In this document: positions 1 to 14,309 of the stretch, piece after piece
How positions within the stretch are numbered: the first letter of the stretch is position 1
Layout of the letters: each line of letters begins with the position of its first letter
UHGV virus genome: UHGV-0041029
Length of the DNA stretch: 15,376 nucleotides
Source of the DNA: a virus
Strand: one strand, 5' to 3'
Notes under the pieces: generated by a model
Databases searched by the model: none
What the model was told of the DNA's origin: nothing
Seen by the model: only the letters and a program-made list of their open reading frames with translations
Made by a program: the position numbers and the translations under genes

Positions 1-49
1 CACATGTAGGTTAGCCTCTTACGTGCCGAAAGGCAAGGAGAAGCAGGCT

Positions 50-205
50 ATGAAGCAGCAAAAGGCGATGTTAATCGCCCTGATCGTCATCTGTTTAACC
101 GTCATAGTGACGGCACTGGTAACGAGGAAAGACCTCTGCGAGGTGCGAATCCGAACCGGCCAGACGGAGGTCGCTGTCTTCACAGCTTACGAACCTGAGG
201 AGTAA
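50..205 (+). CDS. hokD: Hok/Gef-family type I toxin (small membrane-depolarising peptide), HokD/RelF-like
   Basis: 51-aa product MKQQKAMLIALIVICLTVIVTALVTRKDLCEVRIRTGQTEVAVFTAYEPEE has the Hok signature: basic N-terminus, single TM helix, conserved Cys and acidic tail. The ORF track starts at 23 but the Hok-length protein begins at the internal ATG at 50. Assignment is from recollection of the Hok family, not a search. Confidence 0.8.
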   Translation: MKQQKAMLIALIVICLTVIVTALVTRKDLCEVRIRTGQTEVAVFTAYEPEE

Positions 206-274
206 GAGACCCGGCGAGGGAGAAATCCCTCGCCACCTCTGATGTGGCAGGCATCCTCAACGCACCCGCACTTA

Positions 275-300
275 ACCCGCTTCGGCGGGTTTTTGTTTTT
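275..300 (+). terminator. Rho-independent terminator after the hok-like gene
   Basis: Stem acccgc (275-280), loop ttcg, stem gcgggt (285-290), followed by tttttgttttt. A perfect 9-bp hairpin with a GAAA tetraloop (213-234, ggcgaggga-gaaa-tccctcgcc) lies just upstream, resembling hok mRNA 3' fold-back elements. Confidence 0.65.
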
Positions 301-421
301 ATTTTCAACGCGTTTGAAGATCTGGACGGTGCCGGAATAGAATCAAAAATACTTAAGTAGCGCGCAGGGATAAGAGGGATGGTCCCTTAAAGGGGAGAGC
401 TAATTATCCGGAAGGATTCTG

Positions 422-673
422 ATGATGAACATCGAAGAACTGCGTAAAATTTTTTGTGAAGATGGCCTCTATGCTGTGTGCGTTGAAAATGGAAATCTTG
501 TTAGTCATTACCGCATTATGTGTTTGCGAAAGAATGGGGCTGCGTTAATTAATTTTGTGGATGGTCGAGTGACAGACGGATTTATCTTGCGCGAAGGTGA
601 GTTTGTCACTTCATTACAGGCACTGAAAGAGATCGGAATAAAAGCAGGCTTTTCAGCTTTTGCAGAAGAATAA
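422..673 (+). CDS. rem: Small prophage protein of unknown function, Rem-like
   Basis: 83-aa ORF with purine-rich region (ggaagg) upstream of ATGATG. Length and position (downstream of hok, upstream of the DUF968 gene) match my recollection of rem in the Qin prophage. Function unknown. Confidence 0.6.
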   Translation: MMNIEELRKIFCEDGLYAVCVENGNLVSHYRIMCLRKNGAALINFVDGRVTDGFILREGEFVTSLQALKEIGIKAGFSAFAEE

Positions 674-739
674 ACTCATCTACAATCTTGCGCGGGGCTG
701 AACTCCCGCTGAGTAACACCGTGCCACCGGAGAAAACCG

Positions 740-1018
740 ATGGCACGCAACGTAAAATATTACAATTCTGATAATTCGCCCGTTCTTGCCTGCACGCACG
801 AGCGGTATTCTCACGCATTCAAGTCTGAATGGTTCCAGCACCCTCCATGCACTGAAGAGCAGGCTGAATGGATAATTCAGTGTTACCGCAGGCGCGGATA
901 CGAGGTTAAGAAAGCTCTTAGTCTCGACTACCGTCACTGGATAATCTCAGTCAGATTGCCTTACTCCGAACGCCCACCGCGTCCGTCCCGTACATTCCAG
1001 CAACGCATCTGGAGGTAA
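740..1018 (+). CDS. Hypothetical protein (92 aa), translationally coupled to the downstream DUF968 gene
   Basis: GGAG at 727-730 sits 9 nt before the ATG at 740. The stop at 1016-1018 is one base before the GTG start of the next gene, and a GGAGG inside its 3' end serves that gene as RBS. No family recognised. Confidence 0.4.
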   Translation: MARNVKYYNSDNSPVLACTHERYSHAFKSEWFQHPPCTEEQAEWIIQCYRRRGYEVKKALSLDYRHWIISVRLPYSERPPRPSRTFQQRIWR

Positions 1019-1019
1019 C

Positions 1020-2069
1020 GTGCGGGTATTACTTCGACCTGTTCTGGTACCGGAACTCGGGCTGGTGGTCGTTAAGCCGGGCCGTGAATCCATGCCGGTA
1101 TTCCACAATACCCGGGTACTGGTGGAGCCGGAACCGAAAAGCATGCGTAATCTGCCGTCCGGGGTCGTTCCTGCCGTTCGCCAGCCGCTGGTGGAAGACA
1201 AAACATTGCTGCCGTTTTTCAGTAACGCACGGGTAATTCGTGCTGCTGGTGGTGCTGGTGCATTGTCTGACTGGCTGTTGCGCCATATTAAATCCTGCCA
1301 GTGGCCACACGGCGATTATCATCACAGCGAAACCGTTATTCACCGTTATGGTACCGGCGCAATGGTGTTGTGCTGGCACTGCGACAACCAGCTGCGTGAC
1401 CAGACATCCGAATCACTCGAGCAACTTGCTCATCAAAACCTGTCAGCATGGATGATTGACGTCATCGGTCACGCAATAAGCGGTACGCAGGAGCGTGAAT
1501 TATCTCTGGCTGAATTATCCTGGTGGGCGGTCCGCAATCAGGTGGCGGACGCGCTACCGGAAGCGGTATTACGTCGCTCGCTGGGATTACCAGCGGAAAA
1601 AAACTGCTCGGTGTACCGCGAAAGCGACATCGTACCGGGAGAGCAGACCGCCACCAGCATATTGAAACAGCGCACAAAAAATCTTGCACCGTTGCCTCAC
1701 GCCCACCAGCAACAAAACCCATCACAGGAAAAGACGGTGGTAAGCATCACCGTTGATCCAGAGTCTCCGGAATCTTTCATGAAGCTGCCTAAACGTCACC
1801 GTTGGGTTAAGGAGAAATACACACGCTGGGTTAAGACACAGCCGTGTGCTTGCTGCGGTATGCCAGCCGACGATCCGCATCATCTGATTGGTCACGGGCA
1901 GGGCGGAATGGGAACCAAAGCACATGATCTCTTTGTGTTGCCTTTGTGCAGAAAGCATCACGACGAGTTGCATACGGATACCGTGGCATTTGAAGAGAAG
2001 TATGGCTCCCAACTGGAGCTGATTTTTCGATTTATCGATCGCGCGCTGGCAATTGGTGTGCTGGCCTAA
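1020..2069 (+). CDS. ydfU: DUF968-family prophage protein with C-terminal HNH-like Cys/His motif, YdfU-like
   Basis: 349-aa ORF with GTG start. C-terminus carries CACCG...[10 protein letters not shown]...[17 protein letters not shown], a CxxC plus His-rich pattern typical of HNH/DUF968 proteins. Length matches Qin ydfU as recalled. Confidence 0.75.
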
Positions 2070-2086
2070 TTTTGTGGAGTAAGTTG

Positions 2087-2464
2087 ATGCGTGATATTCA
2101 GATGGTTCTTGAGCGTTGGGGGGCATGGGCGGCTAATAATCATGAAGATGTGACCTGGTCGTCCATTGCCGCCGGTTTTAAGGGATTAATTCCTTCAAAA
2201 GTAAGATCTCGTCCGCAATGCTGTGACGATGACGCGATGATCATTTGTGAATGTATGGCTCGCCTGAAAAAAAACAACAGCGATTTACATGATTTATTGG
2301 TGGACTATTATGTCGGCGGCATGACTTTTATGGCGCTTGCACGTAAGCATGGGCGATCTGATTGTTGGGTTGGCAGGATGCTCCAGAAAGCTGAGGGCGT
2401 AGTGGAGGGCATGCTGATGGTGTTGGATCTCCGATTGGAGATGGATGCTGATTGTTCGAAATAA
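2087..2464 (+). CDS. Putative late-gene antitermination protein Q-like (short Phage_antitermQ-type)
   Basis: 125 aa from the ATG at 2087, with GGAG 7 nt upstream; the track ORF starts at TTG 2072. Position directly downstream of DUF968 and upstream of a terminator and the lysis genes is the canonical Q slot. Cys cluster ([12 protein letters not shown]) and a helix-turn-helix-like C-terminus. Family assignment is by recollection only. Confidence 0.55.
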
Positions 2465-2619: not shown

Positions 2620-3144
2620 TTATTGTTTAACCCATAATAGTTCATTGACATTGAATCCCAACTTTTGAGCGGTACGCACATAGTCTGCTTTTACATTATC
2701 TGGAATAGTTTGGGTCCTTGCCAGAATCCATAGGTATTCTCTGTTCGGACCACTGATAAGAGCATACTTATACTCATCATCCAGCTTGATTACATTATAA
2801 CCACCATAGAAGGGGCCAAAAAACGAAACTTTCAACGCTGCAGTTTTAGTATCTCCAGTAAAGTATGCTTTACCTTCGCTCTCGCTCCATTTGTTTTTCG
2901 TTGGATCGTATCCACGGTTAAGTACGCGAATCCCTCCGTCGTTCCGTTTTTCATAAGTAGCGCTGATCTGTTCCAGACCACGTTCGAACCAGTTCTCGAG
3001 GCGAGCTATTTCATACCATTTTCCGAGGTAGCGGTTGGCGTCAAAATTTGTAATCGGCTGCACACCTTTAGGTGGTGTCGGGGCCTTACATGCTATAAGA
3101 GTGAAAGAGAGTGCAATGCCAGTCAACACAGGCCATAACTTCAT
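2620..3144 (-). CDS. blc: Bacterial lipocalin Blc-like outer-membrane lipoprotein
   Basis: 174 aa. N-terminal signal with lipobox (FTLIAC-K). Lipocalin motifs shared with E. coli Blc: NFDANRYLGKWYEIAR, GKAYFTG, AALKVSFFGPFYGGYNVI, YLWILART. AGGA lies 8 nt upstream of the ATG on the - strand. Confidence 0.8.
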   Translation of the reverse strand: MKLWPVLTGIALSFTLIACKAPTPPKGVQPITNFDANRYLGKWYEIARLENWFERGLEQISATYEKRNDGGIRVLNRGYDPTKNKWSESEGKAYFTGDTKTAALKVSFFGPFYGGYNVIKLDDEYKYALISGPNREYLWILARTQTIPDNVKADYVRTAQKLGFNVNELLWVKQ

Positions 3145-3336: not shown

Positions 3337-4296
3337 ATGATAAAAAAACCTGTGATTGGGATCAGCGGTTGTTTGGGCGGTTCTGCTGTTCGTTTTGATG
3401 GTGGTCACAAAAGAGATGACTTTTTAATGGACAAATTAGTGGAATGGGTAACATTCAGACCAGTATGTCCGGAAATGGCTATAGGGCTGCCAGTTCCGCG
3501 TCCTGCTCTACGACTTGTGCGCTCGAAGCAAGGAAATATACGGATGTGTTTCAGCCACGACCAGAATGAGGATGTGACAGAGAGAATGACAGAGTTTAGT
3601 CGTTCTTATATGGACAAATTAAAGGATGTATCGGGGTTTGTGGTTTGTGCTAAATCTCCCAGCTGTGGCATGGAGCGCGTGCGTGTCTATGATGAAAATG
3701 GTAATCGAGGTCGTAAAGATGGAGTGGGACTATTTACGAGCACTTTGATGGAAAAGTTTTCCTGGCTACCGGTTGAAGAGGATGGGCGATTACATGATCC
3801 AGTGCTTCGTGAGAATTTTATTGAAAGAGTTTTTGCTTTGCATGAGCTCAATCACCTTTACAAGGAGAAATTATCAAGAAGAGAGTTATTAGCTTTTCAT
3901 AGTCGTTATAAGCTTCAGTTGTTGGCGCATAGCCAGGCAGGCTATAAAGATATGGGACCATTTGTGGCTGCAATACACGAGTGGGCGGACCTTGAATCAT
4001 ACTTTGAGGTGTATCGTGATAATCTGATGGCGATTCTCAAAAAACCAGCATCACGTAAAAATCACACGAATGTGCTGATGCATATACAGGGGTATTTTAG
4101 TAATTACTTAAGTACACGCCAGCGTAAAGAGTTGAGCGAGGTTATACTTAACTATCGCTTTGGCACATTGCCTCTTCTTGCGCCGTTGACTCTGCTGAAG
4201 CATTATCTGGGTGAGTATCCTAATGATTACTTGCTTACACAGAATTACTTCGATCCCTATCCGGAAGAACTGGCTCTAAGACTGATGGTGAATTAA
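3337..4296 (+). CDS. DUF523 (TudS-like thio-nucleobase desulfidase domain) fused to DUF1722 (YbgA-like); RudS-like putative tRNA 4-thiouridine desulfidase
   Basis: 319 aa, strong RBS gggggagg before the ATG. N-terminal half has Cys in the pattern expected for the TudS [4Fe-4S] ligands (GISGC at 12, PVCPE at 44, VVCAKSPSCG at 104/110). C-terminal half resembles YbgA/DUF1722. Domain calls are by recollection. Confidence 0.65.
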   Translation: MIKKPVIGISGCLGGSAVRFDGGHKRDDFLMDKLVEWVTFRPVCPEMAIGLPVPRPALRLVRSKQGNIRMCFSHDQNEDVTERMTEFSRSYMDKLKDVSGFVVCAKSPSCGMERVRVYDENGNRGRKDGVGLFTSTLMEKFSWLPVEEDGRLHDPVLRENFIERVFALHELNHLYKEKLSRRELLAFHSRYKLQLLAHSQAGYKDMGPFVAAIHEWADLESYFEVYRDNLMAILKKPASRKNHTNVLMHIQGYFSNYLSTRQRKELSEVILNYRFGTLPLLAPLTLLKHYLGEYPNDYLLTQNYFDPYPEELALRLMVN

Positions 4297-4702
4297 CTGT
4301 ATGCGATATCATCTGAAAGTGATGAGTTCCTGTATGCAGGATATTTACAATCGTAAAAACTACGCTATGATGCTCATAGTATCAGTTTTTATAAAAATCC
4401 TGTTCACGCTAAAGAAAACATTGAGATGCAATTTAATGTTGGTAAACATACCAGCCCCAAACGATTTTATTCAATCTGTTTTTATATGAAGATATTTCAA
4501 GTGAATATTAAGAGCATATAATATTATTATTGCACGCAGCTATTATAATATAACAGATTAGTTTAATGATTTGTTTTTTGTGAGTTAAACACATGGTTTT
4601 ATAGTTGTGATGCAATGAGATTTTCCTTATTGTTGAACTGGCGAATATTGATTTTCCACCTATACTTACCTGGTGTAACCCCAATGATATCAGGTGGATA
4701 AT

Positions 4703-5416
4703 ATGCCATACATATGTTCTATCATTTTGGTGTTGAACTCGTTTGGTGTCCGAATTGGTAAAGAAGATATTTTGTTTAAAAAAGGAAATGCTGTCCTCAT
4801 TGAATACAATTTAAAAGATCTTTTTTCGTCAAATACAGATCATCTAATGATCGTAGATGTTGAGGAGAAAACAGTTAATGATTTCTTTAAAAACTACACA
4901 CTCTCACCTTTTTCTGTAAGAAGGTTTTATCCGTCATACTTGATAGTAGAATGTGAAGATTTTTCATTGTTAAAGAACTTGGTTGCATGCTTGAATTGTG
5001 ATAGCAAAACCGTGGATGTAGTTAGAAATCAAATATCACTTGCATGTCTTGCTGTCTTATCTTCAGAGAAAATAGTGCAAAGTTTTTTGTTCGGAAGTCT
5101 TAATAGCTTAGGTTGTAAAGTTAAGGCTATTATTCACTCGGATATCTCAGCGTCATGGAGACTTTGTGATATATCTTCAAGATTATATATGAGCGAGAGT
5201 TTGTTAAAAAGAAAATTAAAAGACGAAGGATTATCGTTTAGTAAATTAATTCTTGAAGAACGAATGATGATGGCGCAAAGATTATTGATCTACAGTAACC
5301 ATACTGTCGGCAAGGTGGCGGGAATATGCGGGTATGACAATGCATCATATTTTGTAAGTGTTTTTAGAGGATATTTTGGTGTGCCTCCGCACCAATATTT
5401 ATCAAGATTTTCTTAG
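4703..5416 (+). CDS. AraC/XylS-family transcriptional regulator, GadX/AppY/YdeO-like
   Basis: C-terminal double-HTH AraC signature (WRLCDISSRLYMSESLLKRKLKDEGLSFSKLI ... GYDNASYFVSVFRGYFGVPPHQY). Gene and upstream 400 bp are visibly AT-rich. Start is probably the ATG at 4703 (aggtgg upstream); the track ORF starts at GTG 4694. Confidence 0.8.
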   Translation: MPYICSIILVLNSFGVRIGKEDILFKKGNAVLIEYNLKDLFSSNTDHLMIVDVEEKTVNDFFKNYTLSPFSVRRFYPSYLIVECEDFSLLKNLVACLNCDSKTVDVVRNQISLACLAVLSSEKIVQSFLFGSLNSLGCKVKAIIHSDISASWRLCDISSRLYMSESLLKRKLKDEGLSFSKLILEERMMMAQRLLIYSNHTVGKVAGICGYDNASYFVSVFRGYFGVPPHQYLSRFS

Positions 5417-10185: not shown

Positions 10186-11919
10186 ATGGGTTTTTCATCA
10201 GCCCGAAATTTGGGAAGGGACATATCGGCAGGATTTTCCCCACCACGTCGCATGCCGATTTCGGAGGCTGTTAAAAAATTCATGCGTGTTCCCAAGGGGG
10301 CTGGTAACTCGGTGCCATGGGATCCTGAACTGACACCCTACATCATTGAGCCCATGAACTGCCTGGCATCGCGTGAATACGATGCGGTGATTTTTGTTGG
10401 TCCTGCGCGAACAGGGAAGACCATTGGTCTGATCGATGGATGGATTGTCTATACCATCGTTTGCGATCCTTCGGACATGCTCGTTGTGCAGATGACCGAA
10501 GATAAGGCCCGCGAGCATTCTAAAAAGCGCCTCGACAGAACGTTCAGAAGCAGTGCGGCGGTAAAGAAAAGAATGAGTCCACGTCGTAACGACAATAATG
10601 TCCATGATAAGACGTTCAGGGATGGCTCGTTCCTTAAAATTGGTTGGCCCTCGGTCAACATTATGTCGTCGTCGGATTACCGGTTTGTCGCCTTAACCGA
10701 TTACGACCGTTTTCCGGAGAATATCGACAGCGAGGGTGATGGTTTCTCCCTAGCCTCAAAACGTACCACCACATTTATGTCCGCCGGGATGACTCTGGTG
10801 GAGAGCTCGCCGGGACGTGACATCTGCGACAGCAAATGGCGACGTAAGTCGCCTCATGAAGCGCCACCGACGACTGGTATTCTTTCCCTTTACAATCGTG
10901 GTGACCGCCGCCGCTGGTACTGGCCATGTCCGCACTGCGGTGAATATTTTCAGCCAGCTATGGATGCCATGACCGGCTACCGTAATGAACCGGATCCCTT
11001 TAAAGCCAGTGAGGCGGCGTATCTACTTTGCCCGCACTGCAGCGGCATTATCACTGCGGAGAAAAAGCGTGAGCTCAATAGTGCAGGAGTCTGGTTACGT
11101 GAAGGTCAGGTCATTGATCGTAACGGCAACGTTTCCGGTGAACCGCGCCGCTCCCGTATCGCCAGTTTCTGGATGGAAGGGCCAGCTGCTGCGTATCAGA
11201 CCTGGGCGCAACTGGTTTACAAATTACTGACTGCAGAACAGGAGTATGAAGCGACAGGAAGCGAAGAAACACTCAGGGCGGTTATCAACACCGACTGGGG
11301 ATTACCTTATCTTCCTCGTGCCAGCATGGAGCAACGAAAAAGTGAACTGCTTGAGCAGCGGGCAGAGCCAGTTCCTTCCCGCAGTGTTCCGGATGGCGTT
11401 AATTTCCTTGTGGCGACAGTGGATGTGCAGGCGGGACGTCATCGCCGTTTTGTGGTTCAGGTAACGGGCTATGGCAGCCGTGGCGAACGCTGGATTATTG
11501 ATCGTTACAACATCACGCAGTCATTGCGCAGTGACTGCGACGGGGAGAGCCAGCGAATTGATCCGGCCAGCTATCCGGAAGACTGGGATGTCCTGCTGGG
11601 GAGCTGGTTTTACGACGAACTGACGTATGAAGAGCGGAGCAGTGACGGGAAATGGAGTAAGCCGGGTCGCGGTGCCAACGAAGCTTTTGACCTGATGGTG
11701 TATGCCGAGGCGCTGGTCATTCTGCATGGATACGAAAAGATCCGCTGGCCGGATGCACCGGAGTGGGCGAGCCGGGAAACCTGGCTGGAGTGTGTCCCGG
11801 ACAGTACCGAACCGTCACCCTCACCGGAGCCGGTATCCACGCCTGTTAAAAAACAAAAACGGAAGAAAACAGTAACTGACGATGTTAACCCCTGGCTGAC
11901 TTCCGGAGGATGGTTATGA
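10186..11919 (+). CDS. Terminase large subunit, lambda gpA family
   Basis: 577 aa. Walker A P-loop (VIFVGPARTGKT), Cys-rich motifs (WYWPCPHCGEYF and LLCPHCSGI) comparable to the lambda gpA CPHC region, and a C-terminal nuclease-type region. Confidence 0.85.
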   Translation: MGFSSARNLGRDISAGFSPPRRMPISEAVKKFMRVPKGAGNSVPWDPELTPYIIEPMNCLASREYDAVIFVGPARTGKTIGLIDGWIVYTIVCDPSDMLVVQMTEDKAREHSKKRLDRTFRSSAAVKKRMSPRRNDNNVHDKTFRDGSFLKIGWPSVNIMSSSDYRFVALTDYDRFPENIDSEGDGFSLASKRTTTFMSAGMTLVESSPGRDICDSKWRRKSPHEAPPTTGILSLYNRGDRRRWYWPCPHCGEYFQPAMDAMTGYRNEPDPFKASEAAYLLCPHCSGIITAEKKRELNSAGVWLREGQVIDRNGNVSGEPRRSRIASFWMEGPAAAYQTWAQLVYKLLTAEQEYEATGSEETLRAVINTDWGLPYLPRASMEQRKSELLEQRAEPVPSRSVPDGVNFLVATVDVQAGRHRRFVVQVTGYGSRGERWIIDRYNITQSLRSDCDGESQRIDPASYPEDWDVLLGSWFYDELTYEERSSDGKWSKPGRGANEAFDLMVYAEALVILHGYEKIRWPDAPEWASRETWLECVPDSTEPSPSPEPVSTPVKKQKRKKTVTDDVNPWLTSGGWL

Positions 11920-11960
11920 ATCAGAATGATATTGAAGCCATGATTCAGCGTTATGGGTGA
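11916..11960 (+). pseudogene. 5' stub (14 codons) of the gene that followed terminase, truncated by deletion
   Basis: ATG overlaps the terminase stop (ATGA), typical coupling for the next head gene. The frame stops after MNQNDIEAMIQRYG, where tape-measure homology begins in another frame. Confidence 0.3.
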
Positions 11961-12798
11961 TCAGCAGCGGCAGCGATATCAGGTACAACTGAGTCTTCGC
12001 CAGAAATACCAGCAACAGCTGGAGCAGTTGAGGCGGGATAGTGAGCAGAAAGGAATATATAACACGGATGACTACAGAAAGGCCGAGCAGGCGCTGACGG
12101 AGAGCCTGAACCGACAACTGAATGAGAATCGCCGTTACTGGCAACAGCTTGAAGTTGTGCAGGGTAACTGGAAAAACGGAGTCCTGCGTGCATTTCAGAA
12201 TTTTACCGTGGATGCAGATAATACGGCAGGAACAGCAGAACAGGTGTTCTCGTCAGCCTTCAGCAACATGGGAAATGGCCTAGCAACTTTTGTCACTACC
12301 GGCAAACTCAATTTCAAATCCTTCACCTCTTCTGTGCTGTCAGATATGGCGAAAATCCTGGCGCAGGCAACCATGATGAAATCGATAAAAGGGATTGGCA
12401 GTGTACTGGGATTTGATCTCAGCAGCCTTTCCCTGAATGCCAATGGGGGGATTTATCAGTCTGCTGATTTGAGTCGTTACAGTGGCACGGTGGTTAACCG
12501 TCCGACGTTTTTTGCTTTTGCAAAAGGCGCGGGTGTGATGGGGGAAGCGGGACCTGAAGCCATTCTGCCACTGCGTCGTGGTGCTGACGGTAAGCTGGGG
12601 GTTGTGGCGGATATTGGTGGTTCAGGTATGGCGATGTTTGCCCCGCAGTACAACATCGAGATCAATAACGATGGCACGAACGGGCAGATAGGTCCGGCTG
12701 CCCTGAAGGTGGTTTATGACCTCGGGAAAAAAGCGGCAGCGGACTTTATGCAACAGCAGGCCCGTGATGGTGGTCGGTTAAGTGGAGCATATCGGTAA
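11953..12798 (+). pseudogene. C-terminal fragment (about 280 aa) of a lambda-like tail tape measure protein (gpH)
   Basis: The C-terminus (NIEINNDGTNGQIGPAALKVVYD...ARDGGRLSGAYR) parallels the lambda gpH C-terminus (VINNDGTNGQIGPAALKAVYD...MRDGGLFSGGGR). The stop overlaps the gpM start (TAATG). No N-terminal 500+ aa present. Confidence 0.8.
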
Positions 12799-13127
12799 TG
12801 GAGACGTTTCACTGGAAAGTGCGCCCGGATATGAATGTGGTATCAGAGCCGAAAGTGGTGACAGTGAAGCTGGGCGATGGTTATGAACAGCGTCGTGCGG
12901 CGGGACTGAATAACCAGTTGTCGATTTACAGCGTGACGATACGTGTTCGTAAATGTGAACACCCATCTTTAAAAGCCTTTCTGGAACGGCACGGTGGCGT
13001 CCGCGCATTTCAGTGGACGCCACCTTATGACTGGAAGCCGATCAGGGTGGTTTGTCGTAAATGGTCGGCAAGCGTGGGGGCGCTGTGGGTAACCATAACG
13101 GCAGATTTTGAACAGGTCGTGGCATAG
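12798..13127 (+). CDS. Minor tail protein M (lambda gpM homologue)
   Basis: 109 aa, METFHWKVRPDMNVVSEPKVV...EFQWTPPYDWKPIRVVCRKWSA...DFEQVVA, collinear with lambda gpM and the same length. Confidence 0.85.
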   Translation: METFHWKVRPDMNVVSEPKVVTVKLGDGYEQRRAAGLNNQLSIYSVTIRVRKCEHPSLKAFLERHGGVRAFQWTPPYDWKPIRVVCRKWSASVGALWVTITADFEQVVA

Positions 13128-13136
13128 GAGGCCCTG

Positions 13137-13409
13137 ATGCAGGATATTTCACAGGAAACACATCATGAGACGACACGCCTCACTCAGTCAGCCCAGGTGG
13201 TGCTCTGGGAAATCGATCTGACCGAGGTAGGCGGGGATCGCTACTTTTTCTGTAATGAGCAGAACGAAAAAGGTGAGTCTGTCACCTGGCAGAGTCGGCA
13301 GTATCAGGCCTATCCCATTCAGGGGAGTGGATTTGAGATGAACGGCAAGGGCAGTGCTGCCCGTCCGACACTGACGGTCTCTAACCTGCACGGCATGATC
13401 ACCGGGATG
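13137..13409 (+). pseudogene. N-terminal fragment (about 91 aa) of minor tail protein L (lambda gpL homologue)
   Basis: MQDISQETHHETTRLTQSAQVVLWEIDLTEVGGDRYFFCNEQNEKGESVTWQSRQYQAYPIQGSGFEMNGKG...TLTVSNLHGMITGM matches the lambda gpL N-terminus. Homology stops near 13409; the open frame runs on to 13523 through unrelated sequence, which is gpJ read out of frame. Confidence 0.8.
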
Positions 13410-13876
13410 GGAATACCAACATCGCCGGTGTCACGGTGGTGTTCCGGGCTGGTGAGCAGGAGCAGACTCCGCCGGAGGGATTTGAATCCTCCGGCTCCGA
13501 GACGGTGTTGGGTACGGAAGTGAAATACGACACGCCGATCACCCGCGCCATCACGTCGGCAAACATCGACCGTCTGCGCTTTACCTTCGGTGTGCAGGCA
13601 CTGGTGGAAACCACCTCAAAGGGGGACCGGAATCCGTCGGAAGTTCGCCTGCTGGTTCAGATACAGCGTAATGGTGGCTGGGTGACGGAAAAAGACATCA
13701 CCATTAAGGGCAAAACCACCTCGCAGTATCTGGCCTCGGTGGTGGTGGATAACCTGCCGCCGCGCCCGTTTAATATCCGGATGCGCAGAATGACGCCGGA
13801 CAGCACCACAGACCAGCTGCAGAACAAAACGCTCTGGTCGTCATACACCGAAATCATCGATGTGAAACAGTGCTAT
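13409..13876 (+). pseudogene. Internal fragment of tail tip/host-specificity protein J (lambda gpJ, about residues 55-220)
   Basis: NTNIAGVTVVFRAGEQEQTPPEGFESSGSETVLGTEVKYDTPITR...[18 protein letters not shown] is near-identical to the lambda gpJ N-terminal region as recalled. It lacks the gpJ start and the C-terminal 900 or so residues. Confidence 0.8.
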
Positions 13877-14309
13877 TCCAGCTGGCTTCGTGGCTGTTTT
13901 CAACAGTGATGAGTCATCGTGGCATCTCGTTGAAGATCATCGGGGTAAAACGGTTTATGACGTGGCTTCCGGCGACGCGTTATTTATTTCTGAACTCGGC
14001 TCATTACCGGAAAATGTCACCTGGTTATCCCCGGAAGGGGAGTTTCAGAAGTGGAACGGCACAGCCTGGGTGAAAGATGCAGAAGCAGAAAAACTATTCC
14101 GGATCCGGGAGGCGGAAGAAACAAAAAACAGCCTGATGCAGGCAGCGAATGAGCATATTGCGCCACTTCAGGATGCTGTAGATCTGGAAATCGCAACGGA
14201 GGAAGAAAACTCGTTGCTGGAAGCCTGGAAAAAGTATCGGGTGTTGCTGAACCGTGTTAATACAACAACTGCACCGGATATTGAATGGCCAGTAGCACCT
14301 ATAGGGTAA
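13875..14309 (+). pseudogene. C-terminal fragment of tail fibre assembly protein (Tfa family)
   Basis: [67 protein letters not shown]... matches Tfa proteins (TfaQ/TfaE-like). Homology starts abruptly at the gpJ junction, so the N-terminal 50-60 residues are missing. An in-frame GTG/ATG could still allow a truncated product. Confidence 0.75.

Follow-up and report, generated by a model that had tools for sequence, protein, structure and literature searches.

In the hok/sok (parB) system of plasmid R1, the full-length hok mRNA is held in a locked state, in which the tac element is paired with the fold-back inhibition element (fbi) and the Shine-Dalgarno sequence of mok is covered by ucb. Trimming of the 3' end allows tac to pair with ucb and dcb to pair with the mok Shine-Dalgarno sequence, and this translatable form is the target of Sok (PMC9841398). 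In phage 933W/Sp5, HokW is toxic, sokW acts as an RNase III- and Hfq-dependent antitoxin, and the pair, shown by experiment to be a type I toxin-antitoxin system, aids the release of phage Sp5; HokW, a close homolog of the Hok protein described here, is 44% identical to R1 Hok (PMC8621323). HokD is listed with the previously characterised toxic homologs that have served as positive controls (preprint 10.1101/2025.08.07.668861). The hokD gene of Escherichia coli K-12 lacks canonical components owing to a rearrangement (PMC12214031), and insertion of relBE has shortened the ancestral hokD from 70 to 51 codons (PMC6379469).

The window analysed here is the entire 15,376-nt stretch of UHGV-0041029, and coordinates are window positions unless an L-numbered locus is named. 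With a probability of about 0.9, its beginning belongs to a complete HokD/HokW-type mok/hok/sok locus, cut by the window edge, which lies in a defective Qin-like lambdoid prophage of E. coli and is subject to control of the R1 type. Gene identity, the presence and conservation of the elements, and both predicted RNA conformations were computed in this analysis; 3' processing, translational coupling, the action of Sok, and toxicity are taken from the published work on R1 hok/sok and hokW/sokW. Sequence upstream of the window is represented by the XH988 locus (L001), which is 100% identical to the window over positions 1-1500 and in which window base 1 corresponds to L001 6001.

The closest described relative is mokW/hokW/sokW of 933W/Sp5, for which the record annotates an in-frame 70-codon mokW, hokW, and a 71-nt antisense sokW. 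L001 is 94.2% identical to it at the DNA level over 416 nt and shares the 70-codon in-frame mok, the position and promoter register of Sok, the tac, ucb, dcb, and fbi boxes, and the setting in a lambdoid prophage. In contrast to HokW with its C-terminus VFVDYESEK, the Hok protein of the window ends with VFTAYEPEE; furthermore, the two sequences diverge inside the terminator, and the loci sit at different places in the phage genome, next to other genes. With R1 hok/sok, the locus has in common the tac/fbi pairing, ucb, dcb, the coupling to mok, a Sok with tail and hairpin, and the logic of two alternative conformations (PMC9841398), but it resides in a prophage, whereas the R1 system is a plasmid stabiliser. 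The features are compiled in Table 1.

Table 1. Coordinates of the hok locus elements and of selected downstream prophage genes in the window
Feature	Position	Strand	Basis
mok reading frame, codon 4 onward (5' end cut off by window)	2-205	+	open frame; 933W mokW
3' arm of predicted Sok-target/mok Shine-Dalgarno hairpin	3-18	+	fold of 3'-shortened mRNA; Rfam RF01794 stem
Predicted Sok promoter: -35 TTGCCT (36-31), 17-nt spacer, -10 TAACCT (13-8)	8-36	-	homology to sokW; hexamers read
hok Shine-Dalgarno sequence AAGGAG, 9 nt before ATG	35-40	+	read from sequence
hok toxin gene, 51 aa, HokD-identical	50-205	+	Pfam PF01848; K-12 comparison; RefSeq annotation
TACG motif (Tyr47 codon TAC + G)	188-191	+	known TadA A-to-I site of hokC/D/E
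Post-stop hairpin, 9-bp stem and GAAA loop, with outer AGAG/CUCU helix (205-208 with 237-240)	205-240	+	folds
fbi (fold-back inhibition) box	255-267	+	minimum-energy fold of full mRNA
Intrinsic terminator, 3'-terminal stem-loop of full-length hok mRNA (stem 274-291, T-run 292-300)	274-300	+	terminator scan; folds
Q antiterminator	2072-2464		
Blc-type lipocalin (cargo/moron-like)	2620-3144	-	
YbgA-type 2-thiouracil desulfurase/DUF1722 protein (cargo/moron-like)	3337-4296		
AraC-type regulator (cargo/moron-like)	4694-5416		

The toxin gene, the mok frame, and the Sok promoter

The hok gene encodes the protein MKQQKAMLIALIVICLTVIVTALVTRKDLCEVRIRTGQTEVAVFTAYEPEE, which covers the full Hok/Gef model (PF01848) with 82.9 bits at a cut-off of 22 (E 1.2e-23) and is identical to HokD (RelF) of E. 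coli K-12; in genomes that are 100% identical to the window, RefSeq labels the gene hokD. The 51-aa Hok-type toxin proposed in the initial annotation is thus borne out, and the alignment that could have placed it outside the family upholds its Hok/Gef membership. A PADLOC scan of Hok gave no family match. For comparison with other loci, 53 loci encoding Hok relatives were gathered from other genomes, and 34 non-redundant ones with both tac and fbi were aligned together with XH988 (L001) and 933W (L003). The resulting 36 loci derive from Escherichia, Kluyvera, Citrobacter, Pantoea, Photorhabdus, and related Enterobacteriaceae. In this alignment, the hok Shine-Dalgarno sequence, which overlaps the -35 hexamer of the predicted Sok promoter on the opposite strand, is nearly invariant, and the sequence TTACGAA around Tyr47 is invariant in all loci. 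A-to-I editing by TadA, resulting in an exchange of Tyr for Cys, has been described for hokC, hokD, and hokE, and hokD is edited at the aligned position (PMC5630033, PMC12214031); the local fold around the TACG motif contains no significant stem (z ~0).

Upstream of hok, the mok frame is open down to base 2 and runs off the window edge. In L001, its ATG is located 8 nt upstream of the window, and the complete ORF comprises 70 codons (L001 5993-6205) with hok in frame. This ATG is kept in 34 of the 36 loci, with a GAGG Shine-Dalgarno sequence upstream. The mok and hok frames coincide in 25 loci and differ in 9, so that the in-frame state is incidental and what is conserved is an upstream start from which translation reads across the hok start. 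In R1, mok is out of frame with hok. The mok-like in-frame extension that had been suggested from base 23 is therefore real as a reading frame, but its start is the ATG outside the window. The GTG at position 23 was rejected as a start codon, since the frame continues to base 2 and the conserved ATG lies beyond the edge; this GTG is a window-edge artefact, merely the first start codon available to the ORF caller inside the window.

The leader is recognised by the Rfam sok model (RF01794). Window bases 1-55 correspond to the last third of this model with 27 bits (E 7e-4), flagged as 5'-cut, and in L001 a full match of 116.6 bits (gathering score 59) begins 120 nt ahead of the window and ends at base 55. 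A hok promoter-like site, TTGGCG-17-TAGAAT, ends 6 nt before this match. The consensus structure of RF01794 contains the same stem as the hairpin predicted at 3-18, in which the dcb box GCCUC (14-18) would pair with the mok Shine-Dalgarno sequence GAGGC in the processed mRNA. None of the 36 loci deviates in the GCCTCTTAC box, which is part of the leader within bases 1-35. The leader bears no annotated RNA features in the closest genomes, and mok, Sok, tac, and fbi are all unannotated. The tac element, the hok promoter, ucb, the mok start, and the body of Sok lie outside the window; the source genome presumably carries them as well, because the identical or 99.8%-identical genomes all do.

The antisense RNA is expected on the minus strand. 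The initial annotation had referred the question of a cognate antisense RNA to the sequence beyond the window edge. The RNA body would lie there, but its predicted promoter lies inside: the suggested search of the minus strand of 1-60 for a Sok-like promoter yields one at 36-8, as judged by its hexamers and by the register of sokW. The window aligns without gaps with 933W sokW, the annotated 5' end of which is located 8 nt inside mokW and hence falls on the minus strand at window base 1. The predicted Sok start would be at about base 1, 7 nt past the -10 hexamer, and the RNA of about 71 nt would extend upstream out of the window. A generic sigma-70 scan did not call this promoter, because its weak -10 hexamer TAACCT matches the consensus at only 3 of 6 positions. 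The minus-strand fold of 1-60 is insignificant (z = -0.98), as expected from the position of the Sok body outside the window. Its equivalent in L001, 5931-6001(-), is predicted to fold with a 15-nt free 5' tail, a long hairpin, and a UUUU end (z = -5.1), which is the classical shape of Sok. By computation, a putative Sok gene with promoter, tail, and hairpin is present opposite the mok start and is co-linear with the annotated sokW.

The structured 3' end and the predicted mRNA conformations

The perfect 9-bp GAAA hairpin and the terminator that had been noted downstream of hok are confirmed. The hairpin GGCGAGGGA-GAAA-TCCCTCGCC starts 7 nt past the hok stop and consists of nine perfect pairs between 213-221 and 226-234. 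The terminator AACCCGC-TTCG-GCGGGTT has a 7-bp GC-rich stem, is followed by TTTGTTTTT, and represents the only terminator-like site in a 700-nt scan. Folding of the 3' region, which had been proposed as a check, shows that 200-300 is significantly structured (-39.9 kcal/mol, z = -3.27), and 0 of 200 shuffled sequences fold as well. In the aligned loci, the post-stop hairpin is found in 36/36 with 7-9 bp, usually 8, and mostly a GNNA loop, and 97% of its alignment cells are paired. Downstream of fbi, 22 of the 36 loci have a terminator-like hairpin, the sequence of which varies between clades.

A minimum-energy fold of the 416-nt mRNA of L001 (-175.3 kcal/mol, z = -6.78) reproduces the locked form. 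Nucleotides 1-12, the 5'-terminal tac sequence GGGUGCUUGAGG that precedes the window by 119-108 nt, pair with the fbi box CCUCAACGCACCC over 12 bp with one bulged C, and GCCCCAG (ucb) pairs with CUGAGGC, which holds the mok Shine-Dalgarno sequence. The fold switches after removal of the last 46-55 nt: GGG/GCUU then pairs with AAGC/CCC (tac/ucb) and GAGGC with GCCUC at 14-18. Both alternative conformations, the one with ucb on the mok Shine-Dalgarno sequence and the one with tac/ucb and mok Shine-Dalgarno/dcb pairing, are predictions. Regarding the claim that the 3' hairpins control the hok mRNA, the role of a structured 3' end is supported by these folds, but neither hairpin is the regulatory element. 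According to the folding model, the true 3' control element is fbi, which the initial annotation had not pointed out; it occupies the stretch between the hairpins and has its partner beyond the window, at the 5' end of the mRNA. By analogy with the R1 hok mRNA, the GAAA hairpin with its outer helix would protect the 3' end of the mRNA once this has been processed and become translatable.

The predicted pairings are conserved across the 36 loci. In the four helices taken together, 93.1% of the alignment cells pair compared to 47-54% with slid partners, and nine pairs are changed on both sides in a compensatory manner, a number that was reached in 0 of 500 shuffles. At the fourth tac/fbi pair, for instance, 23 loci have U-A and 11 have C-G. 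Pairing between tac and fbi was judged by folding the duplex for each sequence, and the 12-bp duplex is found in 36/36 loci with -18 to -27 kcal/mol compared to -10.3 +/- 2.9 for shuffled 3' partners. A fixed-column count, which gives 82% paired cells for the distal half, understates the distal helix because the Photorhabdus loci have no bulge and are shifted by one column.

Taken together with the processing steps described for R1, the following course of events is proposed. The promoter-like site that precedes the window by about 150 nt in the identical genomes would yield an mRNA of about 416 nt, and GGGTGCTTGAGG is predicted about 119 nt upstream of base 1 in the source contig. In the full-length mRNA, pairing of tac with fbi and of ucb with the mok Shine-Dalgarno region would prevent translation of both mok and hok. 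Slow 3' trimming would strip the terminator hairpin and fbi and would probably halt at the 9-bp GAAA hairpin. The 5' end of the trimmed mRNA would then re-pair with ucb, and the mok Shine-Dalgarno sequence would enter the dcb hairpin, which would render the mRNA translatable and expose it to Sok. Sok, as a short and unstable antisense RNA transcribed from the minus-strand promoter and crossing the mok start on its way out of the window, would block translation of mok and, by coupling, also that of hok. After loss of Sok, Hok would be produced and would depolarise the inner membrane.

Prophage setting and variant hok loci

Window positions 1-1500 are 100% identical to several complete E. coli chromosomes, where this region carries RefSeq annotations for hokD, rem, a hypothetical gene, and ydfU. 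When the whole window is compared, ten genomes match it at 99.8% identity across 85% of its length. In these ten genomes, the sequence belongs to a Qin-like lambdoid prophage beside a truncated ydfJ, which corresponds to the Qin site in K-12. Besides the genes in Table 1, a lysis cassette and cold-shock genes are located downstream of hok. A promoter-like sequence, TTGAAG-18-TAGAAT, closely follows the hok terminator at 314-343 and precedes rem (422-673) by about 80 nt. In the region 10186-14309, the large terminase subunit ends at 577 aa and is immediately followed by a C-terminal fragment of the tape-measure protein, gpM, a gpL fragment, a fragment of gpJ with FNIII domain, and a tail-fibre assembly gene. 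This truncated terminase with its adjoining pieces of tail genes marks the prophage as defective. Positions 11574-13873 are missing from the closest complete genomes, which have a larger deletion there.

The relationship to the Qin hokD of K-12 is close but ends abruptly in the leader. Both loci occupy the same chromosomal prophage site on the ydfJ side and are about 99% identical at the DNA level from 14 nt before the hok ATG through fbi, the terminator, rem, and ydfU. In contrast, K-12 hokD has lost its promoter, tac, ucb, the mok start, and Sok with its promoter to the relBE insertion, whereas the window keeps the ancestral leader. Among 5426 complete E. coli genomes, screened with a query coverage of at least 80%, leaders of this hok subfamily occur in 4279 when any paralog is counted, the K-12 relE-hokD junction occurs in 1166, and the junction of the ATPase gene described below with the hok locus in 43.

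Several of the gathered loci deviate from the complete organisation. In Kluyvera sp. CHPC 1.2972 (L029, ~425-600), a 3' end of relE that is near-identical to that of K-12 leads into a gene for a different type of Hok, which shares 70% identity with HokD, and the joint lies at nearly the K-12 position, shortly ahead of the hok ATG; the relBE-hok fusion either predates both hok types or has recombined between them. The locus of E. coli ECMA0423 (L007, ~425-600) encodes an identical HokD protein and has an intact fbi, while its tac region is degenerate and has no GGGTGCTTG box, and its regulatory region may be decaying. In hokC of E. coli ECDA1023 (L017, ~770-860), foreign sequence that looks like the end of an insertion element breaks the 3' arm of the post-stop hairpin and removes fbi, presumably resembling the inactivation by an insertion element reported for K-12 hokC. 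In Photorhabdus khanii (L047, ~425-600), unrelated AT-rich sequence replaces the hok leader to about 25 nt before the ATG, which makes this another 5'-truncated hok locus that is independent of relBE.

Alternative explanations and significance

Since the Hok protein is identical to HokD, the locus could in principle have the arrangement known from K-12, in which a 5'-truncated hokD (relF) is the third gene of relB-relE-hokD, depends on the relBE promoter only, and has no mok, sok, or tac. Identity to K-12 of about 99% from base 36 to beyond 650, with the same rem and ydfU genes downstream, and the frequency of the relE-hokD junction in complete E. coli genomes agree with this arrangement. However, bases 1-35 are unrelated to the relE-hokD spacer, with similarity beginning only at base 36, and these 35 bases match the sok covariance model and contain the invariant box as well as the Sok promoter hexamers. 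The genomes that match at 99.7-100% all have an intact leader with a gene for a P-loop ATPase upstream, not relE, and the relBEF layout, with the relE stop about 70 nt before the hokD ATG and the leader replaced to about 14 nt before it, is not found here. The relBE pair that the initial annotation had considered upstream is absent from the closest genomes; it was rejected based on the K-12 alignment and the annotation of these genomes, and the K-12 arrangement is extremely improbable for this locus. The two 3' hairpins at 214-295 could alternatively represent a separate small RNA of the IsrK type and not a part of the hok mRNA. IsrK is prophage-borne, and a sub-threshold match to Rfam isrK (RF01394) was obtained with 25.7 bits (E 0.003). 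This score is half of the gathering score of 50 and reflects a generic shape of hairpin, spacer, and terminator; moreover, no promoter-like site was found between the hok stop and 214, and the spacer between the hairpins is fbi, which covaries with the hok mRNA 5' end. A small RNA of its own is thus hardly credible at this position. Matches on 209-295 to IsrK, rsmX, and other Rfam families were all rejected as far below their gathering scores and as generic hairpin and terminator shapes.

With regard to function, the locus might be structurally intact but a silent relic of its defective prophage that confers neither killing nor stabilisation nor defence. This would be in line with the deletions that riddle the host prophage, including the truncated terminase fused to tail fragments, with the degenerate tac box of L007 next to the same Hok protein, and with earlier tests of chromosomal hokA, hokB, and hokC, in which no post-segregational killing was found (summarised in preprint 10.1101/2025.08.07.668861). 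On the other hand, none of the known elements is damaged and folding predicts both alternative conformations, hokW/sokW as a close homolog is active and influences the release of phage, and the perfect preservation of the ORF and the RNA boxes in many genomes argues for selection. A silent relic is regarded as unlikely, albeit less so than any of the other alternatives. Upstream of hok, the closest genomes encode a 495-aa P-loop ATPase of the Sll1717 family (L001 4290-5777) directly before the hok promoter, for which PADLOC gives a weak candidate match to PDC-M28C (E 4e-5). It is conceivable, at rather long odds, that this ATPase and the intact hokD/sokD form a prophage island for abortive infection or retention, which might explain why the prophage remnant is retained. 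If such an island exists, the relBE insertion of K-12 would be an alternative replacement of the same slot.

The reading as a complete HokD/HokW-type mok/hok/sok locus accommodates every hok/sok element that can be assessed by computation, all of which are present, while toxicity, neutralisation by Sok, and 3' processing would be expected from the literature on the related systems. The system itself is already known, and the refinements are confined to where mok, the Sok promoter, and fbi lie and what they do, and to the recognition of the intact ancestral form. Because the first quarter of the locus is lost at the window edge, a full locus can look like an orphan toxin. Likewise, the RefSeq name 'hokD' denotes either the truncated form of K-12 or the complete ancestral mok/hok/sok locus. 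As the K-12 copy is without its regulators, the intact form is the proper choice for functional tests of hokD.
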